DNA of 64,000 bases from Ignavibacteria bacterium (GCA_013204605.1 JABMNI010000041.1:170-64169); one strand, 5' to 3'; shown: positions 20,553 through 50,928, counted from the first letter of the stretch. Made by a program: numbers and translations. The notes: generated by a model from the sequence alone, not told the origin.

Positions 20553-21274
20553 TTATGGAGTGCAGCATGGTAAGCCTCCCAGTTTGCAACATTCGTCGAA
20601 ATAAGTATTGCACTCGCCAGTACAAGCCGTGTTATCGCCCTCACAAACAGTACGTTGAAAACTACAGCAATCAACTGGAGATGTTCTGCAGTATCGTCTT
20701 TCAACAAAACAATGTCGGGCACAAGAGTTATCACATGCATAGTAACAAAACGGAGCGTCGTAATGTTTATCCAAACATTTAGGTAGGGCTAGAATATGGC
20801 AGTAAACATTGTTGTTCGTAAGATTTGTACATGTGTTACCAATGCCGCAATTCGGAAGGGTCACACCCAGAATGTTGTTGCAACAAAGATCAGTGCCTCT
20901 TATGATTGCTTGGTAAATAGCAGTCAAGCCTTGGTTTTTCAATTCCTGGGGAACACATATCCGTTTAATCCAAGTAATCGCATTTACACCATAATTACAA
21001 TCCAGCCCTCCACCGGCAGTGCATGGGTTATCGATTAGTGTCGAACTAGAAGCATATTGCGTACACATCCAAACAGAAGCAGTATAGTTAGTCCCCGCAA
21101 AACATATCGTAAAATCCGTTTGCACACCTTCACAATCGCAATCCAATGGCATTTGTTTTGGACACTGATCTATAGGATACTCACATTGTGCTTTCGCATC
21201 ACTGGCGGTTAACCCCAACATAACCAATGAAAGGACTAGCAGAGAGAGAGAGAGAAAAAAAAAACCTTTTTCAC
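20553..21274 (-). pseudogene. Cys-rich secreted protein A, frameshifted at T10/(CT)7 tract (phase-variable OFF candidate)
   Basis: GAGGT SD then GTG at 21274 gives MKKVFFFSLSLC*; removing one CT gives MKKVFFFSLSLLVLSLVMLGLTASDAKA-QC and joins a ~29-Cys ORF. Confidence 0.75.
21241..21264. repeat. Microsatellite (AG)7 + A10 (coding strand T10-(CT)7)
   Basis: Read directly at 21241-21254 and 21255-21264. Confidence 0.95.
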
Positions 21275-21379
21275 ATAAACCTCACCGTTTAACTGAAAGA
21301 AAATTTAATTTCAGTAATAATACGTGATTTTGGGAAAATGTCAAGAAATTGTTTTCACACCACTTCGAGTTTTGCAAAC
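21266..21379. repeat. ~113-bp direct repeat, copy 1 (pcrA 3' end copy + promoter + leader)
   Basis: Near-identical to 24541-24652. Confidence 0.92.
21317..21344 (-). promoter_or_regulatory. sigma70-like promoter of cassette A
   Basis: TTGACA-16 nt-TATTAT on the minus strand. Confidence 0.6.
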
Positions 21380-21389
21380 TCTGGTTCTC

Positions 21390-23804
21390 CTATCTATTCA
21401 AATACACCTTGCCAGTTACTTCACCACATGCTGTAGACAGCGTGTAACAGATCAATCCAGTAAGGTTATGAGGAAACAAAGCCTCTATTCTATCGCTTGA
21501 AGCAATTCCTTTACCTGTGTGCACTAATTCACCGGCATACGTGTAAGCCTTAATGGAGAATGACCGATCGGTACAAGACGGGAAGAGATTTGCACCCTCC
21601 GTGTTTTGAGTTGGCTCATCCTTGATCGACGTAAAAATAGTTGGAGTGTACTTGTACAAACTTCTGTTAGTTCCGAAAAAGTATATGTCACTACCATCCA
21701 CTGCAAAACCCTGGATACGGTACGGATTACTCCAATTCGACACCGCAGAGCCATTCCAATTTTTGCATCCATCAGTACTTGTAAATAGCAAGGAGTATTG
21801 GTAGAGCATTAAGGTTCGCTCCTCATTGCGATCCACTTGTTGCACCAACAAACTTCCGGGATCCACGGGTTTGCCATTCAAGCTCCACTTCATGCGCTCA
21901 GCGCTCCACGCTGATGAATCTGCATTGAAAGAACAGAAGTAATTCACCACGGGATCAAACAAATTTGTAGATCCGCGAGTTCCCAACATGTAGGCAATCT
22001 GATTTTTCAAATGAAGATCGTACCCGGTATGTGGAAGAAAAGTCCGCACTACAACTGGGACTCTGGGCAAAATACTTACAGATCCATCATCAAACAACTC
22101 GAATACTTCCAGTGTATCCGGGATGCGATTAGTTTGGGTTCTTTGTTTATTTAACAAGCTCACTCGTAGCAGTACCTTACCGTTCTCCAACTTATCAATC
22201 CCAATTAGTCGGTATATAATTGAATCTTTATAGTCAATCTTTGGCAACACCCATGTTGTCCCATTATCGGTAGAAATCAATGGAGCAAAAAAGCCCCATC
22301 TCGATGATGAAAAATCACTACTACTTGTTGCGGCAGCCAGCAATCCGGAATTGGTGCGAATTAATGTACCGACGTACTCTACCTTAAAGTTGTCGATACG
22401 GACCGTTTGTTCTTGCCAACTGCTCCCCGCATCAGAACTTGTTGCATAATGATTGTCATTGGAACTTCCACTCAGGAAGAGAATATTGCCTTGTTTATTC
22501 AATACTGTGTATCCAGTTTCAAACGTAGCTAAAGTGTCCTCTTGGCAATTCACTTCAGCAACGTTACTTAGTCTCAACACAGAGCATGACACTGGAGTAT
22601 CAAATTGACCAACCACCCTGGTATTTAATACAAGAAAAGAACCTTCATCAGACTTTATTGCGCCACGCCATTCATTCTTGAAACTTCGAAATGTTCCCAG
22701 TGAATCTATCTCGAAATTTCCGATAGCCGATTGCACATCTTGAAACCGCCACGATTCACCACCATTACGTGTATGATGAATTGCAATGTTTTGTCCATTG
22801 AATTGAGAGCCACAAAACACAACACCATCGGTGTCATTTAACATTACCACGCCAATTGCAGGAGTTGCGGGGTATAGGGACTGATAGTTTCCGTCTACTA
22901 ATTTGTCTGTCAATAGTGCCTTGTTCCAAAAAGCCCCGCCATTGACGGATTTTGCGACAATCTGAAAGTAGGCATTATCACTCTCTTTCTTCCACAGATT
23001 TCCGCAAACATAAATTCTCCCAGAAGAATCCATGGAGAGCTTTCTAAATGTATCGTCGCGCTCAACTCCATCCGCGTACGGGTAAGGAGTAGGTGGAATT
23101 AGATGATATACTTGATCCCATGTTTTTGCGCTATCTATTGACCTAAATACACGCCCTAGCGCACCACAAAGTAGTACCACGCTATCAGAAACAACTAATG
23201 CACTTGTAATGTGCATTGTGTCCAAGGGTGCAGGTCCATCAAACCACGTTTTCCCGGCGTCTCTCGAAAACATACTCTTCCCATGCTGACCAGGTACTGC
23301 AATTACGTCTCCCTTCATACTTAGCGAACCGCAAACAAAGTCAGACTTGTTTTGCACCACTCTCCATTCGTTAGTTGCACTACTCAACACAAGTATTTTG
23401 CCGTCGGTAGTGGCAACTACAATTCCATCTGGATGAGCCTGAACTCCTGAAATACTGGAGCTAACTGGTGCATTGATTGACTCCCAAATATTCGCGTTCT
23501 TAGGTCGCCTCCACACGTTTCCACCCTCACCAGCAGCCCACACGTCAACCTCGGTAACCAAGATTGACGTGATTTCGAATTGAACTGGCAAGCATTCCCA
23601 TTCCCAAGTCATGCTACGATAGTCGTAGGTTCCTACGCGCCCAAACCCGCCACCAGCTATAACGTGAATTGAGTCGAGTTTTTCTGCGGCCATCAGATAT
23701 CTGGCCCCATATTTACAAGGGAGTATCTCCCTCTGCACCGATTGTGCACTTAAAGTAGCGCACAGCAAAAAGTTAAATACTATTCCAACTAGAATTTTTT
23801 TCAT
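21390..23804 (-). CDS. Secreted BNR/YCF48-like beta-propeller protein with degenerate T9SS-like C-terminus
   Basis: Signal peptide MKKILVGIV...LSA-Q, repeated SxDxGxTW boxes (SRDAGKTW, STDNGTTW, SSDAGSSW), C-terminal YTYAGELV...KVYLNR. Confidence 0.8.
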   Translation of the reverse strand: MKKILVGIVFNFLLCATLSAQSVQREILPCKYGARYLMAAEKLDSIHVIAGGGFGRVGTYDYRSMTWEWECLPVQFEITSILVTEVDVWAAGEGGNVWRRPKNANIWESINAPVSSSISGVQAHPDGIVVATTDGKILVLSSATNEWRVVQNKSDFVCGSLSMKGDVIAVPGQHGKSMFSRDAGKTWFDGPAPLDTMHITSALVVSDSVVLLCGALGRVFRSIDSAKTWDQVYHLIPPTPYPYADGVERDDTFRKLSMDSSGRIYVCGNLWKKESDNAYFQIVAKSVNGGAFWNKALLTDKLVDGNYQSLYPATPAIGVVMLNDTDGVVFCGSQFNGQNIAIHHTRNGGESWRFQDVQSAIGNFEIDSLGTFRSFKNEWRGAIKSDEGSFLVLNTRVVGQFDTPVSCSVLRLSNVAEVNCQEDTLATFETGYTVLNKQGNILFLSGSSNDNHYATSSDAGSSWQEQTVRIDNFKVEYVGTLIRTNSGLLAAATSSSDFSSSRWGFFAPLISTDNGTTWVLPKIDYKDSIIYRLIGIDKLENGKVLLRVSLLNKQRTQTNRIPDTLEVFELFDDGSVSILPRVPVVVRTFLPHTGYDLHLKNQIAYMLGTRGSTNLFDPVVNYFCSFNADSSAWSAERMKWSLNGKPVDPGSLLVQQVDRNEERTLMLYQYSLLFTSTDGCKNWNGSAVSNWSNPYRIQGFAVDGSDIYFFGTNRSLYKYTPTIFTSIKDEPTQNTEGANLFPSCTDRSFSIKAYTYAGELVHTGKGIASSDRIEALFPHNLTGLICYTLSTACGEVTGKVYLNR

Positions 23805-23807
23805 AGC

Positions 23808-24549
23808 TCAATTCACACAGTTAACTACTTTGCAGTTGTTATAAATTGGGTCAGTACATGGTGGACCTTGCATCAGCCACGGTCCATCCCAGAATTGAAC
23901 CTGACTTTGCGAACTCTTACAAAATGTGCGGACTCTATAACAGCAACCGTTATTCAAGCAAGTGGTGAAACCTACAGACGCGTTTGCGTAAGGTGTAGGA
24001 GGCGGCAATGGGAACCAAGAGGCTTGAATCAACATCAAATAAGTCGACCAAGAGATTGTAGGATCGTACGACTGCGTGGTGTGCCCGCCACCAGGGGTCT
24101 CCCACGTTATATAGGTTGCCATGCAATTTGCCACTTTGGAATAAATTAATGATACAGTTGAAGGACATGGACAACACTCTGGATCGGCTGTCCATTTAGC
24201 CATTTCTTTATTCGCAATAACCTTATAGATCCCGTCACGTAATCTCCCATCATTGATGGCAGCATTTATTGCATTTGCATCTGCACAGCCGGAAGGTGAA
24301 ACGACTTCCATATTTACTGAATAGTCTAGCCACTCTATTTGATTACACCTTGTCTGATAAGGCATGAAAACCTCAACAGAACACGGCGGAGAAGTTGAAA
24401 TTTCCACAAATGCAGTCAAGGGATGATAGACCCAAGGTTCAGCACATGGCGGCAACCCACCCCAATTGCAGCCTTCTTGGGCAGCAACTTGATTTGTCAG
24501 TGCACTAAGTAGAAATACCAGAGAGAGAGAGAGAGAAAATCTTTTTCAC
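23808..24549 (-). pseudogene. Cys-rich secreted protein B, frameshifted at (CT)8 tract (phase-variable OFF candidate)
   Basis: GTG at 24549 gives MKKIFSLSLSGIST*; adding one CT gives MKKIFSLSLSLVFLLSALTNQVAA-QEGC and joins a 16-Cys ORF. Confidence 0.75.
24520..24535. repeat. Microsatellite (AG)8 (coding strand (CT)8)
   Basis: Read directly. Confidence 0.95.
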
Positions 24550-24652
24550 ATAAACCTCACCGTTTAACTGAAAGAAAATTTAATTTCGGTAATAATACGT
24601 GATTTTTGGAAAAAGTCAAGAGATTTTTTACACCACTTCCAGCTTTGCAAAC
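24541..24652. repeat. ~113-bp direct repeat, copy 2 (includes true pcrA 3' end)
   Basis: Near-identical to 21266-21379. Confidence 0.92.
24592..24619 (-). promoter_or_regulatory. sigma70-like promoter of cassette B
   Basis: TTGACT-16 nt-TATTAT on the minus strand. Confidence 0.55.
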
Positions 24653-26928
24653 GCTAGCATGAGTTGCTTGCGCTGCCCATTATTGAACATCACAGTTGCC
24701 TTGGCGCTTTGCTCTGATCCGCTCAAAGCCATGATGGTGCCAATTCCAAACATGGGATGGTTTACCTGCTGCCCAACGGTGTAGCCGTTTACGGAGTCTT
24801 TGTTTGCCGGACGGATGGATTTTGGAATGGGGGCGTTGTAGCGCGGTGCCGAAGGTAACTGACTGTATGTTTCGCCCTCGGGCATTTGACTGAATTCAGA
24901 TTGACGTTTAGGAGAGCCCCTTTCCCAAACATTTTGGACAGCATGCGCCTCACTGTGCGGGGTGCGGTTGGAGTGATTCCCAACTACACAGGCGGGATCG
25001 ATCTCGCCGATAAACATTGATGGTCGCGAAAAATTCATTTCGCCAAAACGGAACCGGCGCTCGGCATACGTGAGCACGAGGTGCTGTTTTGCGCGCGTAA
25101 TTCCAACGTAAAATAACCGACGCTCTTCCTCGCGTTCATCTATGTCTTGCTCGGCCTTGGCCAGCGGGAACAGACCCTGTTCCATGCCGGCGATGACTAC
25201 CATGGGGTACTCCAGACCCTTCGCGGCGTGCATCGTCATCATACTTACTCGGTTGCCACCAGTCGCCTCATCGTCGGCATCCGATAGCAACGAAATCTGC
25301 TCGATGTATTGCGACAACGTAAGCGTCTCATCAAACTCGTACTGCTCCTGAATGTGGCTGAGCAATCGGTCGATGTTATTCCAGCGGTCTTGGGACTCGT
25401 CGGTGTTTTGCAGACGGTACATATCGGCCAACCCGGTTTGCGCCATAAATCTCTGAGCAACTAAGGCAGGGGGCTCGGTGTCGATATCAACTTGGTTGCG
25501 CGTTATGAGTTCAACAAAATTTTGCACCGAGGTTGCAGAGCGCTTTTGAATGCCAACTACATTCTCAGCAATTTTAAGCGTTTCGAATAATGTGGTATTT
25601 GTTTCAACGGCGTAGTCTTGCAGACGCTGCATGGTAGTGTTGCCGATTCCCCTGCTTGGCTCGTTGATGATGCGCAAAATACTTTCGGTATCGGAAGGGT
25701 TCACCAGTACTCGCAGATACGCCAACGTGTCCTTGATTTCTTTGCGTTTGTAAAAGCTAACACCACTCACAATATGGTAGGCAACGTTGGCGCGGCGCAT
25801 AGCATCCTCGATGAGTTGCGACTGTGCGTTGGTTCGGTACAAAACCGCAACATCACTTGCTTGAAGATTGCTTTCGCGCATCGCGGTCCGCACAACCTTC
25901 ATAATGGTTTCGGCTTCTTCTCGATCATCTCTACAACCGAGCACGAGAATTTTTTCACCCTCGGCGTTATCGGTCCACAATTCTTTTTTCAACCGACCCG
26001 AATTATTCTTTATCACACTATCGGCTGCTGCAAGAATAGTTTTTGTACTCCGATAATTCTGCTCGAGTCGAACGGTTGTTGCCTTTGGATAATCCCTTTC
26101 GAAATCTAAAATATTCTGAATATCAGCACCGCGCCACCGATAAATACTTTGGGCGTCATCGCCCACCACACATAGGTTCCGGTACTTGCGCGCCAACAAT
26201 TCCACAGCCTTATACTGCGCCTTATTTGTATCCTGATACTCATCAACCATGATGTACCTGAAGCGCTCCTGTAACTGGTCAAGCACATCGGGTTGCTGCT
26301 GCAAAAGTCGAATCATATTCAGCAGCAAATCATCGAAGTCCATGGCATTACTTCTCTTCAATCGCGCTTCGTATTCCTGAAAAATCTGCGCCGTCTGCTT
26401 TTCAATTACACTATTGGCTCCATTCGAATACTGTTGCCACGATATCATAGCATTCTTCGCGGAACTTATTCTACCGCGCACTCCATTTGCCGGCAGCACT
26501 TGTTGCGAAATACCAAGCTGAACCATGATGGCTTTTACGGCCGACAACTGATCATCGGTATCGTAAATACTAAAGCTTCGGTTGTAGCCTATCAAATCTG
26601 CATATTGCCTGAGTATTCGTGCAAACACCGAATGAAACGTGCCCGCCATTACGCCATACACCGTATCGCCCACCAGGTGTGTTATCCGCTCGCGCATTTC
26701 CTTGGCGGCCTTGTTCGTAAACGTCAACGCCAGAATACTCGACGGATGAATTCCCTGCTGAAGCAGATACGCAATTCTGAACGTCAGTACGCGCGTCTTT
26801 CCACTGCCCGCCCCCGCAATAATCAACACCGGACCCTCCGTTGTTACGGCGGCCTTGCGCTGATGTTCGTTCAATCCCTCTAGAAGTGATTCGACCGTAT
26901 TTTTTGTAAGAGCAGATTGTGACAACAT
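24628..26928 (-). CDS. pcrA: ATP-dependent DNA helicase PcrA/UvrD
   Basis: AGAGSGKT, TFTNKAA, VDEYQDTN, VGDDAQSIY, EQNYRST, MTMHAAKGLEY, EERRLFYVGITRA, C-terminal Tudor-like HPMFGIG. Confidence 0.96.
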   Translation of the reverse strand: MLSQSALTKNTVESLLEGLNEHQRKAAVTTEGPVLIIAGAGSGKTRVLTFRIAYLLQQGIHPSSILALTFTNKAAKEMRERITHLVGDTVYGVMAGTFHSVFARILRQYADLIGYNRSFSIYDTDDQLSAVKAIMVQLGISQQVLPANGVRGRISSAKNAMISWQQYSNGANSVIEKQTAQIFQEYEARLKRSNAMDFDDLLLNMIRLLQQQPDVLDQLQERFRYIMVDEYQDTNKAQYKAVELLARKYRNLCVVGDDAQSIYRWRGADIQNILDFERDYPKATTVRLEQNYRSTKTILAAADSVIKNNSGRLKKELWTDNAEGEKILVLGCRDDREEAETIMKVVRTAMRESNLQASDVAVLYRTNAQSQLIEDAMRRANVAYHIVSGVSFYKRKEIKDTLAYLRVLVNPSDTESILRIINEPSRGIGNTTMQRLQDYAVETNTTLFETLKIAENVVGIQKRSATSVQNFVELITRNQVDIDTEPPALVAQRFMAQTGLADMYRLQNTDESQDRWNNIDRLLSHIQEQYEFDETLTLSQYIEQISLLSDADDEATGGNRVSMMTMHAAKGLEYPMVVIAGMEQGLFPLAKAEQDIDEREEERRLFYVGITRAKQHLVLTYAERRFRFGEMNFSRPSMFIGEIDPACVVGNHSNRTPHSEAHAVQNVWERGSPKRQSEFSQMPEGETYSQLPSAPRYNAPIPKSIRPANKDSVNGYTVGQQVNHPMFGIGTIMALSGSEQSAKATVMFNNGQRKQLMLAFAKLEVV

Positions 26929-26954
26929 GTTCAATTTCTATTTTTTAAGGGGCT

Positions 26955-27410
26955 TTATGTTTTTGGTGAATCAGACTTCGTTGAAGAATCTGATGTTGTT
27001 GATGAACTAGTTTCTAATTTGTTTACAGATTTTTCAGACGCACCAGATGTTGATTTTGAAGAGTCTGTACTTGAAGATTTTTCACTCGTTTTTTCAGAAG
27101 ATTTTTCTGTTGACTTCTCGCTTGAACTTTCACCTGATTTGTCACCCGTTTTTTCAGACTTTTCACTAACGGATTCCTTGCGTCCGCCTTCCTTTTCCGA
27201 CTTGGTATGAACATAGTCAGTAAGGTAGAAGCCCGCACCCTTGTAAATCACGCCTGTTCCACCGGTAATCTTGCGCGTGATAGCGCCTTTTCCCTTTACT
27301 TCCTGCTGGCAAACCTGCTCCGGGCAGGTGGTTAGTGCGTCATCCTTCATGGACTGGACAAATTCAAATGTGGCTCCGCATGTAGAGCATACATAGTCAT
27401 ACGTGGGCAT
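26955..27410 (-). CDS. FmdB-family zinc-ribbon protein with Ser/Lys/Glu-rich tail
   Basis: MPTYDYVCSTCG...CP..C, YKGAGFYLTDY. Confidence 0.9.
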   Translation of the reverse strand: MPTYDYVCSTCGATFEFVQSMKDDALTTCPEQVCQQEVKGKGAITRKITGGTGVIYKGAGFYLTDYVHTKSEKEGGRKESVSEKSEKTGDKSGESSSEKSTEKSSEKTSEKSSSTDSSKSTSGASEKSVNKLETSSSTTSDSSTKSDSPKT

Positions 27411-27510
27411 GCGCACCTATTATGTGACATTATTCGAAAAAATATTACTGCGTTCAGCTTTCGCAAAACTACCATTCGCCCAACTAGTGCTTTACAAAGC
27501 AGGTTTACTG

Positions 27511-30687: not shown

Positions 30688-30734
30688 TGCCGGGTAACTA
30701 TCCATCCCAACAAGCACCAGGCTCTTCGTAAATT

Positions 30735-30815
30735 TGCATTGGGATTTTTGCATTGGCATTATGAATTGGCATTGATGATTGGCATTCTCAGATTTACACA
30801 TTTCCACATTTACAC
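30735..30815. repeat. Low-complexity intergenic repeats (TTGGCA / ACATTT units)
   Basis: Repeated ATTGGC and CACATTT units; same family at 31455-31525, 39030-39110, 44570-44980, 57995-58270, 59655-59715. Confidence 0.75.
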
Positions 30816-31463
30816 ATGATCCTCGCTCCGTCTTTACTCGCCGCCGATTTCGGCCACCTATCCAGTCAAATCGCCGAGTGCGAAGCAGCCGGAGCAGACA
30901 TTCTGCATATCGACGTCATGGACGGACACTTTGTCCCGCCCATCTCGTTCGGCGTCAGCCTCATGCCGGCAATTCGCGCCGCAACCACATTGCCCCTTGA
31001 CGTACACCTCATGGTCACCAACCCCGACCACCACATCCCGCAATTTGCCGACGCCGGAGCCAACTGGATTTCCGTTCACGCCGAAGTATGCCCGCACCTC
31101 CACCGCACGCTCCAATCCATCCGCCAACGCGGATGTCGCGCCGGTATCGTGCTCAACCCCGCCACTCCCCTCACCTACGCTACCGAAGCCGCCGAACACG
31201 CCGACTTCATCCTCCTCATGAGCGTCAACCCCGGCTATGGCGGCCAAGCCTTCATCCCCTCGTTCTTCGAACGCTGCAGTTCTTTGCGTGAGAGTCTAAA
31301 TGAAAAGGGGCTTTCCCACATCCAAATAGAAGTCGACGGCGGCGTAAACGCCTCCAACATCAAAGCCGTGTGCGATGCCGGAGCCGAAATAATCGTCAGC
31401 GGAAGCGGAGTGTTTAAAGGGGATATTGCGCAGAACATCTTACAGATTCGGGCAAATGTGTAA
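30816..31463 (+). CDS. rpe: Ribulose-phosphate 3-epimerase
   Basis: APSLLAADF, HIDVMDGHFVP, DVHLMV, MSVNPGYGGQ, EVDGG. Confidence 0.96.
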   Translation: MILAPSLLAADFGHLSSQIAECEAAGADILHIDVMDGHFVPPISFGVSLMPAIRAATTLPLDVHLMVTNPDHHIPQFADAGANWISVHAEVCPHLHRTLQSIRQRGCRAGIVLNPATPLTYATEAAEHADFILLMSVNPGYGGQAFIPSFFERCSSLRESLNEKGLSHIQIEVDGGVNASNIKAVCDAGAEIIVSGSGVFKGDIAQNILQIRANV

Positions 31464-37557: not shown

Positions 37558-39032
37558 GGCACTGGTTCCAACGTGTAGCCGTCCTTGCCATCCTTCATTA
37601 CAAAACCATTTGACGCAATTTCATCGCGAAGTGCATCGGCATCGGCCCAACGTTTTTCAGACTTTGCAAGCCAACGTGCCGACGCAATTTTTGCAACGTG
37701 CTCTGGAATTTCAGCAAATATTTGTTCAGTGAATTCCCAAACGTTCAACACGCAATTAACTCCCCACAACACTTCAAGGTACTGCGTGGCCTGGCTGATG
37801 TCCAACTCGGCTATCATAATTTTTGGTAACGCAGAAAATAATTCCGCCAGCGCCCGCGGCATGTGAAGGTCTTCTGCCAAGGCAGTGTATACGCTTTGCT
37901 GCAGAAAAAGGGGCTCACCCAACACGCTGATATCAGAACCGATGTAAGATTTCAGATTTGTTTTTTTCAACAACTGCCAAATAAGTTGTTGTATGCGTAT
38001 GCGAGTTTTGCCGGCAGCCACAACACCATCGAATGTGAAGTTTAACTTATTTCGGTAATGTCCGCTAATTAGCGAAAACCGCACATCACGAATGTCCAAG
38101 CCCCTTTCCAAAAGATCGGTAACTGTGTAGAAATTATTGAGCGACTTCGACATTTTTCCGCCGTCTACTTCCAAGAATTCTCCGTGGCACCAAAACGTGG
38201 CCTGCTCTACAATATGATAACCGGCGCAGCACTGCGCTAGTTCATCCTCGTGGTGCGGGAAGCGGTTGTCTACGCCGCCGGTGTGCACATCGAACGGCAG
38301 ACCCAACAGTTGTTTCGACATTGCAGAACATTCAATATGCCAACCCGGACGGCCGGGAAGGTTCTCGCCAGCAACCGTGAAATCCCAAAACGGTTCGTTC
38401 CCTTTTCGAGCCTTCCAAAGCACAAAGTCACTCACGGAATCGCGGTCATATTCATCTGCATCAATGCGAACTCCTTCGCGAAAGTTCTCCATATCCACGT
38501 GAAATATTCTGCCATACGTGTGAGTTTTTCGGTAAGCTGCAACATTGAAATACACCGAGCCCCCACTAACGTAACCGTACCCCGCATCAATAATTTTCTG
38601 CGTCAAATTGCGCATCTCGTCGATATAATCCGTAGCTCGCGGCATCGCTAAAAAATGTTTGCGCTCTATTCCCAATCGTGCAATATCATTCAAAAACATT
38701 TCCGAATAGTACTCCGTTAGCCTCCGCAAATTCACCATCGAATCATCAACCTGCGCGCCTAATTCTTTTGGCCAACTTGAACTCCCCATCGCACTGTCGG
38801 CAATTGTTTTATCGTCGATATCCGTAATGTTCATCACCCAGCGCACCCCATAGCCCCCTACCACGCGCATCACGCGCTGCAGAATATCGGCAAACAAAAA
38901 GCTCCGCATGTTTCCTATGTGCGCAGTGTTGTACACCGTGGGTCCGCACGAATAAATGCTAATCTCCCCTTCGGTAAGGGGCTTCACCGGCTGCACAGAT
39001 TTGGATAAGGCGTTGTATAAACTTACGATCAT
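37554..39032 (-). CDS. cysS: Cysteine--tRNA ligase
   Basis: YSCGPTVY, HIGN, NITDIDDK, GRPGWHIECSAM, KMSKS. Confidence 0.96.
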   Translation of the reverse strand: MIVSLYNALSKSVQPVKPLTEGEISIYSCGPTVYNTAHIGNMRSFLFADILQRVMRVVGGYGVRWVMNITDIDDKTIADSAMGSSSWPKELGAQVDDSMVNLRRLTEYYSEMFLNDIARLGIERKHFLAMPRATDYIDEMRNLTQKIIDAGYGYVSGGSVYFNVAAYRKTHTYGRIFHVDMENFREGVRIDADEYDRDSVSDFVLWKARKGNEPFWDFTVAGENLPGRPGWHIECSAMSKQLLGLPFDVHTGGVDNRFPHHEDELAQCCAGYHIVEQATFWCHGEFLEVDGGKMSKSLNNFYTVTDLLERGLDIRDVRFSLISGHYRNKLNFTFDGVVAAGKTRIRIQQLIWQLLKKTNLKSYIGSDISVLGEPLFLQQSVYTALAEDLHMPRALAELFSALPKIMIAELDISQATQYLEVLWGVNCVLNVWEFTEQIFAEIPEHVAKIASARWLAKSEKRWADADALRDEIASNGFVMKDGKDGYTLEPVP

Positions 39033-39110
39033 TATGAATTACGAATTATGAATTACGAATTGAGGATTAAGGATTGGCATTCTCACATCTACACATTTTC
39101 ACATTGGGCT

Positions 39111-42838: not shown

Positions 42839-43120
42839 TTACAGATCCTGTGTTTTCCTCACTACGAAATTCATCTCAATCAAGTCTGTACCCAAACGCT
42901 GCGAAATTCGGGCCAGCACCCTGAGAGTTGGGTTTGCGTTCGATTGAATGAGCGCCGTAACCTGCGCCTCGGTCAATCCGGTCTTCTCTGCCAACTGTTT
43001 TTGATTCAGTTTTTGTTCGCCCATCACCTCTATTAGTCTAGTGGCAAGTTTGTGTTGCCATGTCCAATATTTCCGATCGTCCGGCTGCACGCTGGCAAGA
43101 ATTTTTTCGTAAATGCTCAT
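42839..43120 (-). CDS. XRE-family HTH protein (probable antitoxin)
   Basis: LNQKQLAEKTGLTEAQVTAL...NPTLRVLARI; GGAG upstream of ATG 43120. Confidence 0.85.
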   Translation of the reverse strand: MSIYEKILASVQPDDRKYWTWQHKLATRLIEVMGEQKLNQKQLAEKTGLTEAQVTALIQSNANPTLRVLARISQRLGTDLIEMNFVVRKTQDL

Positions 43121-43130
43121 AATTGTGCTC

Positions 43131-43631: not shown

Positions 43632-43779
43632 GTGTGTTCTGAGTCATTACAATATAATATAATTTTCAACACAAATTGCCCCTGTTGAGTGGGGAGTATC
43701 ATTGCAAAGCCGTGCATACGGAGCCGTGTAATGTGACATTCCTACACTCACAAACTTCAACGACGTCCTATTTTTGCAC

Positions 43780-44505
43780 ATGATCCTTCGCTTACTATTA
43801 TTTTGTTCCCTGCTGGCGCTTCCCCTGCACGCCCAAGACTGCACCAACCTACCCTTCGAGGTGCAACTTGCCCACGACGTAAACCATTGGGGGGGCAGCG
43901 GATTCCATTCCGCATCGGGCGTTGTGAGCGATGCCCTTTTGCCCCTTACCATAGGCGTCCCCGTCATGCTGGTAGCGTATGGCGCGCTGGAGATGCAAAT
44001 TTTTGAGGGGGCTGAGGGGTACCGTCACAAATACGCGTTTCAGTCCGGACTCGAAATTGCATCGAGTTTGGTGGCGGCCTATGGCACGGTATTCATTGCT
44101 AAGAAAATCTTCGGCCGTGCTCGGCCCTACCAGGAACACCCCGATTGTATCACGAACTACCGCGATGATGCCTATGGGTCCTTCCCCAGCGGCCACAGCG
44201 CCGGTTCGGCCGCTCTGGCCACCTCGCTCAGCCTTGCCTATCCCGAGTGGTATGTAATTGCCCCAAGCGTGGCCTACGCCCTGTACACAGGCTTCTCCCG
44301 AATGCATCTTGGAATGCACTATTTAAGCGATGTTGTAGGGGGCTATGCAGTTGGGGTCGGAGCCGCCGTGGTGGTCCATTTACTTCGAAATCATTTTTTC
44401 CCATACGAAGGCGAAGGAATGGCCACCAACACTCAACAAAATTTTCCACGTCTTGCCGTGCTGAATCCGTACCAGCCGGTGTTTGCCGTTACGATCCCGT
44501 TTTAG
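43780..44505 (+). CDS. PAP2-family phosphatase
   Basis: KKIFGRARP, SFPSGH, SRMHLGMHYLSDV. Confidence 0.93.
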   Translation: MILRLLLFCSLLALPLHAQDCTNLPFEVQLAHDVNHWGGSGFHSASGVVSDALLPLTIGVPVMLVAYGALEMQIFEGAEGYRHKYAFQSGLEIASSLVAAYGTVFIAKKIFGRARPYQEHPDCITNYRDDAYGSFPSGHSAGSAALATSLSLAYPEWYVIAPSVAYALYTGFSRMHLGMHYLSDVVGGYAVGVGAAVVVHLLRNHFFPYEGEGMATNTQQNFPRLAVLNPYQPVFAVTIPF

Positions 44506-44513
44506 ATTTCTGC

Positions 44514-44862
44514 GGGCGACGCATGCGTCGCCCTTACTCGGGGATAGGTTGCGTGTAACAGCATCGTCATTAACATTTTCACATTTTTACATTTTCTCAT
44601 TGGCATTCTCATATTCGCACATTTACACATTGGGCTTCCCTCCCGGCTATTTTCTCCGGGCGACGCATGCGTCGCCCCAACTTGAAGATAGTTTGCGTGA
44701 ATATGTTCGAAAAGAGAACTTCGTTTTTACGTCACATTATTTATTGCAGATTACGCATTGGCATTGGCATTCTCACATTTTCACATTTTCACATTTACAC
44801 ATTGGGCTTCGCTCCCGGTTATTTTCTCCGGGCGACGCATGCTCGCCCCAACTTGAAGATAG
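44514..44862. repeat. Cluster of three REP-like palindromes within a ~170-bp imperfect duplication
   Basis: GGGCGACGCATGCGTCGCCC at 44514 and 44658, 1-nt-deleted copy at 44830. Confidence 0.85.
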
Positions 44863-44992
44863 TTTGCGTGAATTGGTTCGACAAAGTAACTTCGTTAACA
44901 CACTACATTATAAATTGTTGATTGGCATTGGCATTGGCATTGGCATTGGCATTCTCATATTTACACATTTACACATTTGACTTCCCCACATT

Positions 44993-45781
44993 ATGAAGAT
45001 AGCTGCCGTTCAATTCACCCCTGAGTTCAAAAACGTTGACAAGAACGTTCAGCATATTCTTGATCACGTTGTGAACGCACAATCGGATTTGGTTGTAATG
45101 CCGGAACTGGCCACGTCGGGATACTTCTTTTTGAGCGCTGCCGAGGCGGCGCCATACTCGCACGAAACAGATAGCCCCTTCATAAAAAAATTAGAGTCCG
45201 AAGCGGTTGCAAACAACACGGTGGTGGTGTGTGGATTTATCGAGAACAGCAACGGGGTTTTGTATAACAGCGCGGTGGTGGTGGGCAAGGGAGTTGCAAA
45301 ATACGTGTACCGCAAAACGCATTTGTTTTACAAGGAGCATCAAGTTTTTGAAAGGGGCGATACGGGATTTGGTGTGGTGAATATTCCGCATTTGGATTGC
45401 AATCTGGGCGTGATGATTTGTTATGACTGGCGGTTTCCGGAGTCGGCGCGGACGCTGGCGTTGCGCGGTGCCGATGTGATTGCGTGTCCCTCGAATCTTG
45501 TTACCAACATCTGGCGGATGGCCATGCCAGTGCGCGCGCTCGAGAACAAGGTGTACTTGGCGGTTGCTAATCGCGCGGGTACAGAATCGAACGACGGCGA
45601 AGAAGTAACGTTTAACGCTGATAGTGTGATTTACGGTTATAACGGCAGCGTGTTAAACCAAGCGTCTACCACTGATAACATGGTAGTTGTGGCCGACATC
45701 AATCCATCTGAAACGCGCGACAAATCGTTTAATGATGTGAATGATATTTTCAAGGATCGAAGGCCGGAAATATACGAATGA
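44993..45781 (+). CDS. Carbon-nitrogen hydrolase (nitrilase superfamily)
   Basis: Catalytic triad motifs VMPEL, YRKTHL, ICYDWRFPE. Confidence 0.92.
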   Translation: MKIAAVQFTPEFKNVDKNVQHILDHVVNAQSDLVVMPELATSGYFFLSAAEAAPYSHETDSPFIKKLESEAVANNTVVVCGFIENSNGVLYNSAVVVGKGVAKYVYRKTHLFYKEHQVFERGDTGFGVVNIPHLDCNLGVMICYDWRFPESARTLALRGADVIACPSNLVTNIWRMAMPVRALENKVYLAVANRAGTESNDGEEVTFNADSVIYGYNGSVLNQASTTDNMVVVADINPSETRDKSFNDVNDIFKDRRPEIYE

Positions 45782-45791
45782 CAATTAGCAA

Positions 45792-45836
45792 TTAGCAGTC
45801 CCGAGCGCGACGAGGGACGAGAGGGACAATTAGCAA
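45792..45836. repeat. 45-bp imperfect direct repeat, left flank of the protease island
   Basis: 36/45 identical to 51243-51287. Confidence 0.75.
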
Positions 45837-45981
45837 GTAACAACTTGCAGTCCGGAGTGAAACGCGAGACGAACAGTAAATTCCGAAAATTGAACCCTTG
45901 TTTCCTAGGTTGAATTGGTCAGACACGTTCACGATAGTCGGAAAGGAACTGATTCAATCGGCCCGTCACCGTCAGGGTACC

Positions 45982-47235
45982 CTACTTCAACAAAACAACT
46001 CCCTGAGAAACCGCGGCATTTAAACTGCTCACCACCACTCGATACATTCCTGGTGGAAGGGGGCTTAACTCCACCGCGAATGTTCTGCCTACGAACGTTG
46101 TATGCATCGATGTTTGTCCAAACATATCAACAACTGAAATGGTGTGTTCCTGTGCGCCATCTTCATCCAACGTGATGGTAAGGGGGCCAACTGTCGGGTT
46201 TGGATGCATGGTGATTTTTCCTGAGTGTGGGAGTTCCTGAACAGAAACGGGAACGGTTCGTCTGAGAATCACGCGCTGGTTACCAACGGCAACAATTGTG
46301 TTGCCGGAGATGGCAATGTCGTTTATCGGTTCGTACAAAATTCCGTCATAATCCAACTCCCAGGTAAATCCGCCATCTGTTGTAAGGTAGATATCTCCTT
46401 GATTGTCGCCCGCAAATCCATGCAATTCATCGGCAAAGGCCATCGCCGTTATCGTGTATGGCAACTCGGTCTGGGGCTCATGCCAGGTAAGACCCGAGTC
46501 GGAAGTAAAAGCAATATTCTTTGTGAACGAGGCAGATTTGTAACGATTACCACCGACCCATAGATGGTGTGGCATTATGGCCTCCAGCGCGTTAACCCGG
46601 AAACTTGACGATATCTTGTTCAAATTTGGTGGGAATATGTACTTCTTCCCATACTTCATCATAACCTCTCCCCCTACGCCTGCAATAGACTGAGTCCAAC
46701 CACCAAAAAATGCAATGCTGTCACCACGAACAATTAGAGTTTCACAATATGAACAACCACCTATCTGATTAATCCATGTGGCACCGCCATTTGTGGTGTA
46801 TGAGTACACAGCGCCTGCGGGACCCAATACATGTCCGTAGAGTTCACTATTAAATCCGATGCCCACGGCATACGACCTCGTTCCGTCACTCGCTAGCACC
46901 CTGTGCACACTATCCCACGTCATGCCAGCATCGGTGGTTTTGAATACATATTCACCGGCAACATACCCCGTATGAGCAGTGGGAAAACTCACCGCATGAA
47001 AGCTCTGCCCCTTGGCTTCTTTAGGTTCGATCTTTAGCCACGTTCTCCCTGCGTCCGTTGTTCTAACTACAAAGGGTCCACCAACTGTATAACCCGTATC
47101 GGCATTTACAAAGTCAACATCTGTCAGATCAACTCCGTCACAAGGGCACAAGAGCCTTTCCCAAACAGCGTTTTGAGCTCGGGCCAAACTTATTAAAGCG
47201 AGCATAGCTAATACAACTGAAATAAAGATCCTCAT
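45982..47235 (-). CDS. YCF48/BNR-repeat T9SS cargo protein
   Basis: Signal peptide ending ARA-Q, TTDAGRTW/TTNGGATW repeats, CTD HPNPT...GMYRVVV. Confidence 0.88.
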   Translation of the reverse strand: MRIFISVVLAMLALISLARAQNAVWERLLCPCDGVDLTDVDFVNADTGYTVGGPFVVRTTDAGRTWLKIEPKEAKGQSFHAVSFPTAHTGYVAGEYVFKTTDAGMTWDSVHRVLASDGTRSYAVGIGFNSELYGHVLGPAGAVYSYTTNGGATWINQIGGCSYCETLIVRGDSIAFFGGWTQSIAGVGGEVMMKYGKKYIFPPNLNKISSSFRVNALEAIMPHHLWVGGNRYKSASFTKNIAFTSDSGLTWHEPQTELPYTITAMAFADELHGFAGDNQGDIYLTTDGGFTWELDYDGILYEPINDIAISGNTIVAVGNQRVILRRTVPVSVQELPHSGKITMHPNPTVGPLTITLDEDGAQEHTISVVDMFGQTSMHTTFVGRTFAVELSPLPPGMYRVVVSSLNAAVSQGVVLLK

Positions 47236-49553
47236 CGCACCACCTGTAATACTGTGGATACGGTATGGCTACCAGTGCTTAGTACACATATATACAAACC
47301 TGCTGGTGTTTGGTCCAATTCGATTTGTAGCCGATGAACGCCCGAAGGATAGTTTACATTCTCTATTAGCACGCGATGAACACGCCCAAGTTGGTCGCAA
47401 AGCACAAAACGCACTGACTCTGCGTTCCGGAGTGAAAACCATAACACACCTTCATCTTGTACTGGATTGGGTGCTACGAATAACGTCGGTGCTGAGGACG
47501 CTAACTCGGGAGAAACAGCCCCAAGTTCTTGGCCTGCACTGCCATTTGAAACAACAATAGGTACTCTTGGAAAAAAGTCAGTACATGGGTCAGCAATTGA
47601 GGCTCTGAAGGAACAACCATCTCGTGCTCTAAACCCATTTTTCAGTCTCACCCTATCACCGGCAATGTAACTCAGCGTCGCCCCGGACTGTACAATGTTT
47701 TCATTGGCATTTCCGCAAACCTTTCCTGCCGTTATCCTGTGAATTGCCTCAAGCAACGTTTCAGTTGATTGGCTTGTGTATGTTGCACACCGTACAAAGT
47801 CGTAGCCAACATTATTCGCGTAGACACCTACGGCTTTCCATGCCTCCTTAATCTGCGTAACATCTCCTGAGGTCAGCTCACTATTCAGAACTAAATCATT
47901 TGCTGCTTCCAAACTCCCGATACGTGCGTCCACGAAGTTTGACCATGGACCTAGGTAGTCTGAAAGATTCCGAAATGCAACCTTTGCTGCTTTTTCCTTT
48001 CCAATCCCGGTAACTGAATACGTGGCGGTGCTGCAACAATGGTTATTTGTTCCCGTGTGCGTACCCGACTTAGCAAGCAAGGTGAACCATCTATTTTGAA
48101 CCCCGGCACGGATATGATATCCAGGGTCTTCTTCTTGAATTGTGCTCCAGTATGTTCCACAGTATGTATCGGGGTGTTGCTTCGCATTCGGGTTTACCAT
48201 GTTTCGCTGGTTGGCCGTCGTCAGACATTCTTCTCCCATAATATAGTCTTCACAGTCGTACTGGTTGCTTTGATCATACAGACCCTTTGCATAGCACTCA
48301 ACCATACTGCCAAAAATATCTCCAAAGGACTCGAATAGCGCGCCAAATTCACCAACAGGACCAGAAGTTGGAATATCGGCGACTTCGTAGCTGATAGCAT
48401 GCGTCCATTCATGTCCAATCACGTCTAGCGCTGTGCCCCAGTCAATAAAAACGTCTGGGTACTCTTCAGGGTCAGGGACAACTATGCATTGATAGTTATT
48501 ATACCAGTTAAATTGTGACCGTCCTCCTAATAACTGCAACATGGGTGACCCATTATTATCATATCCATCATATTTTTGTTCTTTATGGAAATATTCGTAG
48601 GTCATCATGGCGGACCAATGCGCCTGTACATATGGATTTAGGGCATTGTCATCCGTCCATTCGAGATCAGCATGAGATATTTCGGTTTGCGTTGGATTTG
48701 TGAGGATATGAGCATCAATACTACGTGTTTGAATATATGTAGCGTTGCAATAATCTTCGAGTATATAATCACTACCAACTAGCTTCACATTTATGATTTG
48801 CTCACCGTTAAACAAGGTGTTGGCATTTGCTTTTGGATTGGTACATCCAGTACTGTTGCGAACGGCTTTCACAATTGAACCATTAATTGCATCCACAAAC
48901 ATATTGTATTGGCCAATTGGTCGAACGGTTGCAATTGGTATTAGATAGGCTAAAACAAGATTAGATCCCACAACATCTTGATTGTCATTAACCCGTACGA
49001 AGGCTAGTTCCGGTTCTGGATATTGCGTGACTGTCGTGTCATTCAGTATACGTTTAACAAAGAGTTCTTCTGCCCGGTCAAGAAAGGCAGGCGTGCCGTG
49101 TGGCACAGCACGAATGGCTCGTTCAAGAGCTTGTTGCCTTGTTAGATTTGGCCAACCGGAGAGGCCTAAGCTGATAACGATCCTGCCATTAGCTTTTACG
49201 GCTCTGCCGTTCTTCTCATGGACGATAAACATGGCATCTTGAATTGGGACGCCATCGTGATATTGCTTGTATCGGTAATGAGTATACCCATATCTGTCTT
49301 GAGTAACCCGTAACAGTCGCATCTCATCAGTTGAGGTTAGCCCAAATAGTGGTCCGTAGACCTCAAACACACGCTTCCCTGAAATGTTCACGTTGTCTTT
49401 GAAACGTACCCATCCGCTAGGGTGTACGATATTGCATATCTCTGTTACATTCGGGTCAAGCTGAGCATGAAGCGACCTTGGTACAGAAAAAACAACCAGT
49501 GGAACTATTAAGAGAATACACCGGCTGAACGAAACCGAAATTGCTGTACTCAT
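47232..49553 (-). CDS. M4 (thermolysin/bacillolysin) metallopeptidase, T9SS cargo
   Basis: FTP/PepSY propeptide (HYRYKQYHDGVPI, VDAING), HEWTH and GALFESFGD zinc motifs, CTD APNPVQ...GLYICVL. Confidence 0.92.
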   Translation of the reverse strand: MSTAISVSFSRCILLIVPLVVFSVPRSLHAQLDPNVTEICNIVHPSGWVRFKDNVNISGKRVFEVYGPLFGLTSTDEMRLLRVTQDRYGYTHYRYKQYHDGVPIQDAMFIVHEKNGRAVKANGRIVISLGLSGWPNLTRQQALERAIRAVPHGTPAFLDRAEELFVKRILNDTTVTQYPEPELAFVRVNDNQDVVGSNLVLAYLIPIATVRPIGQYNMFVDAINGSIVKAVRNSTGCTNPKANANTLFNGEQIINVKLVGSDYILEDYCNATYIQTRSIDAHILTNPTQTEISHADLEWTDDNALNPYVQAHWSAMMTYEYFHKEQKYDGYDNNGSPMLQLLGGRSQFNWYNNYQCIVVPDPEEYPDVFIDWGTALDVIGHEWTHAISYEVADIPTSGPVGEFGALFESFGDIFGSMVECYAKGLYDQSNQYDCEDYIMGEECLTTANQRNMVNPNAKQHPDTYCGTYWSTIQEEDPGYHIRAGVQNRWFTLLAKSGTHTGTNNHCCSTATYSVTGIGKEKAAKVAFRNLSDYLGPWSNFVDARIGSLEAANDLVLNSELTSGDVTQIKEAWKAVGVYANNVGYDFVRCATYTSQSTETLLEAIHRITAGKVCGNANENIVQSGATLSYIAGDRVRLKNGFRARDGCSFRASIADPCTDFFPRVPIVVSNGSAGQELGAVSPELASSAPTLFVAPNPVQDEGVLWFSLRNAESVRFVLCDQLGRVHRVLIENVNYPSGVHRLQIELDQTPAGLYICVLSTGSHTVSTVLQVVR

Positions 49554-50928
49554 CGCATGGATTCCCGAATTTGGTCAATCTCACGTTTGAGGGAGTTATT
49601 CTGCTCAGATAATCTGATAACGTAGAGCGTCAGTTGTTCAATTTTTTCTAAAAAAGTTGCTTGTAGCTTGCCAAGCAGAACCCCATGTTCTGCTACTTCT
49701 GACTGATTTGGAATTCCAGGAAGGTGTTTGTTCTTATATATATACTCTTTCAATTCATCTATTGCCATAAGGTTATAGTCTTCGCTAAAAACGTAATCGG
49801 GCCACCAACCTCCAGTTCGAACAGCAATTTCTTTTGTCAAGATCACACCGTCTACATGCAACTTGTGAGAAAAATTTGCCGTTAGTTGATCGTCGTTATA
49901 ATTTTCACCTATAATAACATCACCCTTTACTTGCAGTCCGCCCCCTGCTAAATTCGAATGTGCATCACCATACCCTACTACCAATGTCCCTGCATTCGTT
50001 AGCTTAATCAACTGGGAGTTATCCGAGTTAGTGATCCTCAAGGCATTTGTCGCACCTGTATAATCTTGCGTCTTGATAAAGAGTCTTGTCCCAGTTTCCG
50101 GCGTACCACTACCGAATGCGTAGATTCCGTTGCCGTTGGAATCGTAGTATAAACTCAATCCATTAAACGTTCCAGATGGCTCTTGAAAATCCACTGCTCC
50201 GTCAGCGCTTCCAGTACCACCTAATCCCAATCGCACCTTACCGTTGCTGGCAAAATCGAGTACTGAACTGTATCCATTGTTAATTCGCTTCTGATTGTTC
50301 GAACCGTCAACGTAGACATTGAACCCGAAAAAGTCGTTGAACGAACCAACATGAAACGTCAGCCGTGGACCTATTTGCAACAACTCCTTTGGATCTACAC
50401 TCGCAATTCCAACGTGTCCAATGTCGATGATCCGCATTCTTTCCGCATCTGCGCCGCTATTCGGCGATGTCGTCGCAAACCGTATCATCGAACCAGGATC
50501 GCGAGTGGTAAGAATCAGGTTGGCGGTTGTAGAATCAGAGACACCCACGGCAATTGAAAAATCATTGAGAGTTTCGAGTGTAGTATTTTGAAACCCACCA
50601 CGATACAAACTTAAAGTTGTATGAAAATCACCAGCACATATCGGACTCAGTGCTGGACCATTCGAGCTGAACCTTAGAGATGGCTGACCACTCTCCAATA
50701 GATGCAGAGTAAATGGCTGCGTATAGTTATTTGCGCATGCACAGCCATTCGCATTGTCTGTAATCCTTACCCGCTGGCCAATTCTATCCCCATTTATTAC
50801 ACCCGGATTACAGTTTTGTGACCTAGCTACCCCATGAATACAAAACAGGCTTATTATAAGAACCGCAACTATGTTATCACGTCTGGATAGGTAACTACGT
50901 CGAGAGAGAGAGAGAGAGATTTAATCAT
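49550..50928 (-). pseudogene. Secreted fibre-like protein with tail-fibre chaperone-like C-terminus, frameshifted at (TC)9 (phase-variable OFF candidate)
   Basis: GAGGT SD and ATG 50928 give MIKSLSLSLDVVTYPDVIT*; removing one TC gives MIKSLSLSRRSYLSRRDNIVAVLIISLFCIHGVARS-QNC, open through to WPDYVF...HLPGIP...LEKIEQLTLY and a coiled coil. Confidence 0.78.
50902..50919. repeat. Microsatellite (GA)9 (coding strand (TC)9)
   Basis: Read directly. Confidence 0.95.

Follow-up and report, generated by a model that had tools for sequence, protein, structure and literature searches.

Why are three genes for secreted proteins in one bacterial genome out of frame with their own start codons, each because of a dinucleotide repeat of the same kind in its first codons? 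This question is raised by a stretch of 64,000 nt (in the following, the window) from an Ignavibacteria bacterium (GCA_013204605.1, JABMNI010000041.1:170-64169), in which a (CT)7, a (CT)8 and a (TC)9 tract head the genes termed here gene 1, gene 2 and gene 3 (loci 1 to 3). Coordinates are counted from the first letter of the window, and all three loci are situated on the minus strand (Table 1). The genome, designated G000, is a metagenome-derived assembly of 2,693,137 bases in 86 contigs. Because of the anatomy of the loci, the enrichment of such repeats at gene starts, their recurrence with varied tracts across genera and one pair of ON and OFF alleles, we consider the three tracts probably to be simple-sequence contingency loci, i.e. 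sites of translational phase variation by simple sequence repeats.

Anatomy of the three loci

According to the original prediction the window contains only three long CT/AG tracts. This holds for the whole 2.69-Mb genome: among 35 dinucleotide repeats of at least 5 units in G000, only these three are of the AG/CT type with at least 6 units, and one (CT)5 is found elsewhere. At all three loci the tract lies 3–7 codons past a start codon preceded by a Shine–Dalgarno (SD) sequence, as had been read from the sequence before. Translation from the start codon reproduced the early stops that had been described: 12 residues followed by TAG at locus 1 (from GTG), 14 residues and a stop at locus 2 (from GTG) and 19 residues and a stop at locus 3 (from ATG). 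At loci 1 and 2 an ATG two bases upstream of the GTG runs directly into TGA.

Another frame is open through each tract into a long open reading frame (ORF) of 239, 245 and 456 codons for genes 1, 2 and 3, respectively, and no second lesion was found in these frames. As predicted, the N-terminus encoded by this second frame reads at each locus as a signal peptide, with h- and c-regions and an end directly before Gln. Signal peptides ending before Gln follow the ‘Q-rule’ of the Bacteroidetes (available text of PMC5837995 and PMC10653852). The repair of the frame by −1, +1 and −1 repeat units that had been put forward agrees with the offsets of −2/+1, +2/−1 and −2/+1 nt at loci 1, 2 and 3; at locus 1 the frame is also restored by one extra T. 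Automated gene callers give N-terminally truncated products, again as foreseen, of 222 amino acids (aa) for gene 1, 185/167 aa for gene 2 and 382/332 aa for gene 3.

At all three loci a non-triplet repeat in the 5' coding region therefore sets the reading frame, and the gene behind the repeat is otherwise intact, as judged from the open frames and, in the case of gene 2, from the family alignment, in which 18 invariant columns (10 Cys) are all retained in the window copy. Defining the 5' end of a long ORF as a site with at least 150 codons open downstream and at most 40 upstream, 9.7% of random sites qualify, and the chance that three of three tracts do so is about 1e-3, before an SD sequence and a start codon are demanded. 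The observation is confirmed and lies far beyond chance.

We propose that slipped-strand mispairing during replication would alter the length of the repeat in the first codons of the signal peptide. This would apply to the CT tracts and to the T10 run that borders the tract of locus 1. Two thirds of the possible lengths would put the start codon out of frame, leading to a stop after 12–19 codons and to no exported protein. With the third length a normal Sec signal peptide would result, and the repeat would merely add Ser-Leu (or Phe) residues to it or remove them. The junctions within the operons are tight (gaps of 17 and 3 nt, and two ATGA overlaps), so the OFF state probably also reduces the beta-propeller and protease cargo of the type IX secretion system (T9SS) encoded downstream. 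The loci would be part of a larger set of leader and promoter repeats heading paralogous surface or secreted cassettes, and mixed surface types would result. We infer the rate, reversibility and polarity of switching as well as its selective agent, which may be attachment or pressure from phages or grazers.

The original prediction had assigned the tracts to T9SS operons. T9SS cargo is indeed encoded downstream, and G000 encodes the SprA translocon of the system, but the first genes code for Sec-exported orphan proteins without a sorting domain. No match to Por_Secre_tail or TIGR04183 was found in the products of genes 1, 2 and 3 at E≤0.01, and none of the three belongs to a Pfam or NCBIfam family. 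For Por_Secre_tail in the four downstream proteins, two pass the cut-off of 27 bits (27.1 and 30.8 bits), one scores 19.8 bits and one gives no match.

Alleles of the tracts

Evidence on alleles was taken from assembled contigs (Logan), in which minority alleles stay hidden, and from public protein clusters. Three products fall into the 90% cluster of gene 1: the truncated one of 222 aa, a 240-aa protein (P0150) and a strain variant (P0149) with a short, interrupted, in-frame leader. P0150 stems from a 148,937-nt JGI/IMG contig, which encodes genes 2 and 3 as truncated products. Its N-terminus, VKKVFFFLSLSLLVLSLVM, reads VKKVFFFL..., and residues 5–240 are identical to the downstream frame of the window. 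The protein keeps the start frame through three Phe and then enters the downstream frame, a path that requires T11 instead of T10. As read from the protein, P0150 would represent an ON allele of locus 1, with the change in the T run and not in the CT tract.

A Logan contig from the probable source sample (X1) is colinear with the window through locus 1, 60 letters matching positions 21236-21295 (read from record coordinates), and its four mismatches to locus 2 are those predicted by the window sequence. Locus 2 is likewise spanned by an X1 Logan contig, without differences. Since the contigs of a second assembler agree with the window, the tract lengths are real. Contigs from X2 (depth about 3) end before both tracts, and X4 yielded only fragments of other organisms.

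Copying of a cassette from locus 2 to locus 1

Loci 1 and 2 have a stretch of about 122 nt in common (91% identity), comprising the promoter-like site, the SD sequence, the start codon and the first codons; it was not found elsewhere in G000. Upstream of locus 1 a remnant of the last codons and the stop codon of pcrA is present (21360-21385, minus strand), and the true end of pcrA lies at 24628-24650. The remnant indicates that the promoter-leader-repeat unit at locus 1 is a copy of that at locus 2, placed before an unrelated gene. The grammar of loci 1 and 2 is hence shared because a cassette was copied, and the two origins are not independent. Genes 1 and 2 have no detectable relation (BLASTP E 0.1), and the propellers encoded behind them are at most weakly related via segments of BNR repeats (best E 0.005). 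A pattern scan of a metagenome contig collection, which may lack records close to G000, for the shared leader with a CT tract gave seven matches, all of them unrelated chance matches.

Repeats across the genome

An enrichment of CT tracts at the 5' ends of secreted genes had been named beforehand as a check; a genome-wide count was made for repeats at the 5' ends of long ORFs. Dinucleotide repeats of at least 6 units were located at the 5' end of a long ORF in 6 of 10 cases (p=1.2e-4), 4-, 5-, 8-, 10- and 11-mers in 9 of 18 (p=1.6e-5), heptamers in 8 of 43 (p=0.05) and homopolymers of at least 9 nt in 13 of 62 (p=0.006). The frame-preserving 3-, 6-, 9- and 12-mers, which served as control, were found there in 4 of 24 cases (p=0.2). 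Repeats thus occur at 5' gene ends above chance in G000, the frame-shifting ones being enriched and the frame-preserving ones not, and this contrast is the prediction of selection for switches.

Several paralogues are headed by other repeats. On contig C39, gene 2 has two paralogues: one is headed by (TCTGCGCC)4, which leaves the gene OFF, the other by (TCTGTGCC)3, which is in frame without a canonical start. A paralogue of gene 3 on C83 begins directly after (CCACT)9 at the contig end. In a family of secreted proteins of 713–1747 aa, 10-mers or a 7-mer follow a conserved M..L...F leader; the member on C62 is ON, those on C68 and C35 are OFF, and contigs C38 and C71 break inside the 10-mer array of this family. 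A further gene, on C76, carries (GCTACACA)3 and is ON. The idea of a shared CT switch therefore stands as regards the common position in the leader, but CT is only one type of repeat beside T10, 5-, 7-, 8- and 10-mers and poly-C.

The breaks on C38 and C71 were inspected: C38:10194-10273 and C71:5379-5448 end in the same 10-mer array of 7–8 or more copies, which sits between the conserved leader (on C71) and a 1747-codon ORF (on C38). The two are probably one gene split by the assembler inside the repeat. Over the whole genome a repeat is present within 80 nt of 25 of the 172 contig ends, versus about 0.35% expected, which fits long or heterogeneous arrays without proving heterogeneity.

Repeats were also seen in promoter regions. 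(GT)/(AC) tracts of 8–13 units are found at C64:43601-43624, C66:12485-12500 and C20:4532-4557 / C35:38-63, ahead of genes for small secreted Cys-rich paralogues; TTGCAA and a motif resembling TTATCCACA adjoin these tracts. Where C20 and C35 share a tract, they overlap with one mismatch, suggesting a bubble that the assembler did not resolve. G11/C11 tracts lie directly upstream of TAAATT/TAAGTT and after GGAAA(A/T)G in G000 (C72:23312-23322, C75:57508-57518) and in two relatives (G012 C6:3239 and C1:52143; G006 C1:2115430); in G006, TTGACT precedes the tract and TAAATT follows it. Such a homopolymer in the promoter spacer is a design conserved ahead of secreted-protein genes in several genera.

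Intergenic arrays of 6-, 7- and 8-mers occur in the window at 14187-14284, 30733-30817, 39031-39069, 44573-44978, 51443-51492, 57995-58273 and 59875-59899, with the units ATTGGC, TCGTAAT/AATTACG and CACATTTT/AATGTGGA. As they also precede the housekeeping genes murC (51491) and that of a CN-hydrolase (44993), these arrays belong to the intergenic DNA of the genome in general and have no particular link to secreted genes.

Host and relatives

PcrA, encoded by the gene adjoining locus 2, has relatives at 60–66% identity, labelled by their submitters as Ignavibacteria bacterium, Chlorobi/Chlorobiota bacterium, Candidatus Kapaibacterium or Kapaibacteriota; a relative of the same genus is on record with a PcrA 84% identical (P0027). 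The sequencing runs that hold the sequence are freshwater and aquatic metagenomes. The host is a Kapaibacteria-like uncultured freshwater bacterium. Its genome encodes MutS and MutL, so any instability of the tracts does not come from missing mismatch repair.

The complete one-contig genome G006, which belongs to another genus, has exactly three CT tracts (n=13, 11 and 18), one directly after the ATG of each of its three homologues of gene 2; the resulting states are OFF, ON and OFF. G052 carries (CT)15 (OFF) and (CT)8 (ON) a few codons past the ATG of Cys-rich secreted genes. In G023, the orthologue of the operon of gene 3, peptidase and propeller has C21 in place of (CT)9 at the same codon position (OFF), and G024 has C7 at the same leader position (OFF). 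A G12 run was also observed in G024 (C62:12608-12619) just after the predicted signal-peptide cleavage site, with a 240-codon ORF out of frame; from its sequence it would be a switch-like repeat behind a leader rather than inside it.

Within the family, (CT) tracts of at least 7 units were found in 8 of 51 genomes. Eight of these 13 tracts are located in leaders; the other five (G010, G042, G023, G047 and G049) are not at clear gene starts. Tracts of at least 8 units occur in 24 of 151 genomes sampled from the order, in 7 of 11 families. Among the matches listed for the other families, namely 27 tracts from 12 genomes, beyond which the scan gave 97 further matches, six directly follow an ATG (5 of 5 in G120, mostly in lipoprotein leaders, and one in G112), and the remaining listed tracts fall into dispersed repeated elements (G078, G148, G156) or intergenic DNA. 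In the dispersed elements, (CT)8-12 lies between conserved flanks and not in gene leaders (five cases in G078, five in G148 and three in G156); the flank before the tract in G078 reads GGGCGGGCGG...GGG.

Of 40 relatives, 10 have gene 1 homologues with ordinary in-frame signal peptides; all 10 belong to other genera. Several gene 2 homologues have an ordinary in-frame signal peptide and no CT tract of at least 5 units; Logan homologues of gene 2 are on record as P0151 and P0152. These ordinary leaders indicate that the CT tracts are young.

Of 20 leader repeats that are followed by 120 or more open codons, five are ON: those of C62 and C76, the n=11 tract of G006, (CT)8 of G052 and locus L191 of G120. 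Random tract lengths would give about one third, which is close to this share; the ‘default OFF’ of the original prediction is not a separate finding and was dropped.

A wider reading would extend these results to the whole order. We regard it as quite possible, though with slightly less than even confidence, that this Kapaibacteria-like, mismatch-repair-proficient order runs a large phase-variable repertoire, in which repeats of whatever unit length, by the dozen, are inserted and time and again replaced in promoters or at one small set of signal-peptide codons, some of them on copyable promoter-leader cassettes. They would head modular surface cassettes made up of an orphan-fold Cys-rich protein with beta-propeller T9SS cargo, or of a fibre-like protein with secreted proteases.

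Points against switching and alternative explanations

A number of results weigh against the contingency loci. Within the species no variation in CT-tract length was seen in public contigs and protein clusters, and a 283-letter Logan contig (depth 2.2) from a run of another study (X3) shows the same (CT)8 at locus 2 without any difference. In the public assemblies on record genes 2 and 3 are solely N-terminally truncated, i.e. OFF, and the genes on C68 and C35 are also only OFF; in the clusters of five other repeat-headed genes no ON/OFF pairs were found. What sets the sole ON allele apart is a homopolymer, and no other tract type is as liable to sequencing and assembly error; the allele is known from its protein. 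The gene 1 homologues of the 10 relatives carry no CT tract of at least 5 units. With MutS and MutL present, slippage at short dinucleotides should be rarer than in H. pylori, and contigs hide minority alleles. Finally, the kin are not independent and paralogues share ancestry, so that the tallies overstate the number of independent events. The contingency system as originally proposed is thus supported by the anatomy, the enrichment, the mixed ON and OFF states among kin and the ON allele of locus 1, but not by alleles differing in CT units.

We considered four alternatives why the genes could be out of frame. Repeats are error-prone, and in this 86-contig metagenome assembly many contigs break at them, so the tract lengths could be sequencing or assembly errors and the genes could be in frame in the cells. 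This is extremely unlikely: short reads handle (CT)7-9 well at about 34–36x depth, the independent assembler agrees in tract length at loci 1 and 2, as does the run of the other study at locus 2, gene 3 is equally truncated in the JGI/IMG, NCBI and Logan products, and the out-of-frame pattern recurs in unrelated assemblies including the one-contig complete genome. The frameshifts might also be irrelevant if the real starts were the downstream ones chosen by the gene callers and the CT tract were a pyrimidine tract of the 5'-untranslated region acting in translation control, and the minimum-energy fold of locus 3 does pair UCUC with GAGG of the SD sequence. However, none of the three leaders folds better than its shuffled versions (z −0.4, 0.13 and −1.0), and products from the downstream starts would have no n-region and an incomplete signal peptide or none, although all homologues possess one. 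The frame upstream of the called starts stays open and encodes the hydrophobic core, and the ON allele P0150 starts at the upstream GTG. We therefore hold an untranslated control element to be very improbable.

Two further explanations accept the frameshift as real and deny the switch. The genes could be expressed constitutively at a low level by recoding, i.e. by slippage of the RNA polymerase on T10 at locus 1 or by ribosomal frameshifting, with the tract as a fixed attenuator. Transcriptional slippage on runs of at least 9 A/T is established, the mRNA of locus 1 contains a U10 run, and the tract lengths of loci 1 and 2 appear stable in the contigs. A slippage or frameshift site common to all loci was rejected: no long homopolymer exists at loci 2 and 3 (T4 and none, respectively), and the leaders lack a significant stimulatory RNA structure. 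Moreover, the paralogues and orthologues vary in tract length and include in-frame copies, and with P0150 an in-frame allele at the DNA level is on record as a called gene; recoding is unlikely. The genes could instead be plain pseudogenes, decaying after frameshifts at mutation-prone repeats and without adaptive switching. All three are OFF in G000, no assembly on record has gene 2 or gene 3 ON, and some homologues of relatives (G024, G020, G013) are split or contain stop codons. Decay is difficult to reconcile with long frames free of a second lesion, with the retention of invariant Cys, Trp and Pro columns, with a 5'-end enrichment restricted to frame-shifting units, with different repeats at the same position in orthologous operons of other genera and with the existence of in-frame copies, and we give pseudogenes little credence. 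Switching by the leader repeats thus remains our preferred explanation.

Organization of the operons

The features of the three loci are collected in Table 1. The promoter-like sites match the consensus only, and the count of such sites in the region is not above that in shuffles.

Table 1. Features of the three loci in the window; all on the minus strand.
Feature	Position	Strand	Basis or remark
Locus 1
Promoter-like site TTGACA-16-TATTAT	21317..21344	-	11/12 matches, top score of the region; consensus match only
SD sequence GGTGAGGT	21286-21279	-	sequence
GTG start codon	21274-21272	-	sequence; ON allele P0150 begins V-K-K-V here
T10 homopolymer, leader codons 4-7	21264-21255	-	tract differing in ON allele
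(CT)7 tract	21254-21241	-	sequence and genome repeat scan
Gene 1	20553..21272	-	Cys-rich secreted protein; frame open from 21272; annotated start 21227 or 21221
BNR/sortilin-type beta-propeller with T9SS C-terminal sorting domain	18022..20535	-	Sortilin-Vps10, BNR, Por_Secre_tail (27.1 bits, cut-off 27)
Locus 2
Promoter-like site TTGACT-16-TATTAT	24592..24619	-	10/12 matches; inside stretch common to locus 1
SD sequence GGTGAGGT	24561-24554	-	sequence
GTG start codon	24549-24547	-	sequence
(CT)8 tract	24535-24520	-	sequence and genome repeat scan
Gene 2	23808..24545	-	Cys-rich secreted protein, second orphan family; out of frame with start codon
804-aa BNR-type beta-propeller	21390..23804	-	3 nt past gene 2 stop; BNR, Sortilin, PSII_BNR weak, below cut-offs
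Locus 3
SD sequence GAGGT	50937-50933	-	sequence
ATG start codon	50928-50926	-	sequence
(TC)9 tract	50919-50902	-	sequence and genome repeat scan
Gene 3	49550..50920	-	456-codon open frame; secreted, possibly fibre-like; out of frame with ATG
M4 (thermolysin-type) metallopeptidase with propeptide	47232..49553	-	Peptidase_M4, Peptidase_M4_C, FTP; Por_Secre_tail 19.8 bits, cut-off 27
Ycf48-like BNR propeller with T9SS C-terminal domain	45982..47235	-	PSII_BNR 60.2 bits, Por_Secre_tail 30.8 bits

The products of genes 1 and 2 are Cys-rich and comprise about 225 residues. The propeller gene of operon 1 begins 17 nt past the stop codon of gene 1, and the propellers of operons 1 and 2 both have a length of about 800 residues. 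The module of gene 2 and propeller is found again in G006 (three copies), in G052 and on contig C39 of G000 (two copies), where each gene 2-type gene is followed by a propeller of 790–830 residues as in the window. For the gene 2 product (23811-24476) a confident alpha/beta model was obtained, with a predicted local distance difference test (pLDDT) of 81.5 and a predicted template modelling (pTM) score of 0.77. Foldseek found no solved structure similar to this model at E≤0.001 (best TM 0.13–0.15), the best hit of a wide VIA search (Z 5.6) is within noise, and a protein atlas gave no usable feature match, its own model being poor. Judged from the model, gene 2 may encode a new extracytoplasmic fold.

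Gene 3 has an orthologue in G023 (54% identity), and the paralogue on C83 is 62% identical. Its product matches weakly the phage tail-fibre family phrog_18345 (E 1.3e-4). The structure model is poor (pLDDT 50.7) except for C-terminal helices, and a sequence search of the PDB gave nothing meaningful. The ATG of the M4 peptidase gene overlaps the stop codon of gene 3 (ATGA), and an ATGA overlap also joins the Ycf48-like propeller gene to the peptidase gene. An A10 run was noted at 50990-50999 (minus strand), some 60 nt ahead of the ATG of locus 3 and closely preceding a TTGTCA hexamer. This run may affect the promoter as a second mutable element of the locus.

Comparison with known systems

Phase variation by simple repeats has mostly been studied in small-genome bacterial pathogens (PMC11475388, available text), and an enrichment of repeats at N-termini has been proposed as its genomic signature (PMC3315296, available text). 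Our literature searches, to which subscription journals were mostly inaccessible, found nothing linking type IX secretion with repeat-based phase variation. On phase variation in free-living or environmental bacteria they returned a survey of Type III restriction-modification systems, and no work on this lineage or on secreted or T9SS genes. ‘Kapabacteria’ paired with ‘phase varia’ gave no match, and Ignavibacteria only an unrelated one. The statement that the system has not been described for this lineage accordingly agrees with these searches.

If real, the loci are a clear sequence-level case in an uncultured freshwater lineage with mismatch repair, in which repeats control secreted and T9SS-linked surface modules. 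Annotation would be affected, as such genes are called as N-truncated fragments and their signal peptides missed, and so would the breakage of metagenome bins, in which many contigs end in repeats. Strain-level surface diversity and the pressure of phages or grazers would have to be read differently from metagenomes, and two orphan protein families would be flagged as probably exposed and under fluctuating selection. Were the wider reading true of the order, stochastic surface switching, presumably against phages or grazers, would be normal in free-living bacteria and not a speciality of host-adapted small-genome pathogens.

In the Bacteroides group, phase variation is known mainly from invertible promoters, which are inverted site-specifically by invertases, and a recent review names Bacteroides solely for switching of this type (available text of PMC11868660). 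Bacteroides belongs to the same wider bacterial group, and there, too, multiple surface-related loci switch independently; in contrast to inversion by invertases, the element described here is a simple repeat inside a coding leader, without inverted repeats. The porA gene of Neisseria meningitidis varies by a poly-G tract in its promoter spacer (available text of PMC3639595). The G11/C11 tracts beside −10-like hexamers upstream of secreted-protein genes in G000 and its relatives resemble this arrangement. They belong to a class acting on promoter strength, whereas the three loci act on the reading frame.

The opa genes of Neisseria carry CTCTT pentamer repeats in the region coding for the leader peptide. 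They resemble the present loci in that paralogous surface genes each have their own leader repeat and are independently ON or OFF, and (CCACT)9, which precedes the C83 paralogue of gene 3, is a pentamer repeat as well. They differ in protein and lineage, and units of 1, 2, 5, 7, 8 and 10 nt are found here among related genes.

The closest likeness is to oipA (hopH) of Helicobacter pylori, which, like babA and sabA, contains CT repeats of 5–11 units in the signal-peptide codons that are switched by slipped-strand mispairing (available text of PMC10564699). Common to both are a CT tract of similar length in signal-peptide codons, a frame that sets the ON or OFF state, several loci per genome and the C-terminal end of the signal peptide as a marker of the in-frame state. 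The proteins of the window are orphan Cys-rich or fibre-like proteins without sequence relation to OipA; membership in the Hop/OipA family of H. pylori was rejected, as genes 1, 2 and 3 match no Pfam or NCBIfam family. Since they are unrelated to the OipA and Opa families, the likeness is one of mechanism and not of family membership. H. pylori is not known to possess mismatch repair, whereas the freshwater Kapaibacteria-like host has MutS and MutL, and the switched genes of the latter head operons with T9SS cargo. Slipped-strand switching has been reported for H. pylori and is predicted here from the sequence. The mechanism is thus already known from the oipA type; new are the lineage, the extent of the system in it and the ecological setting.

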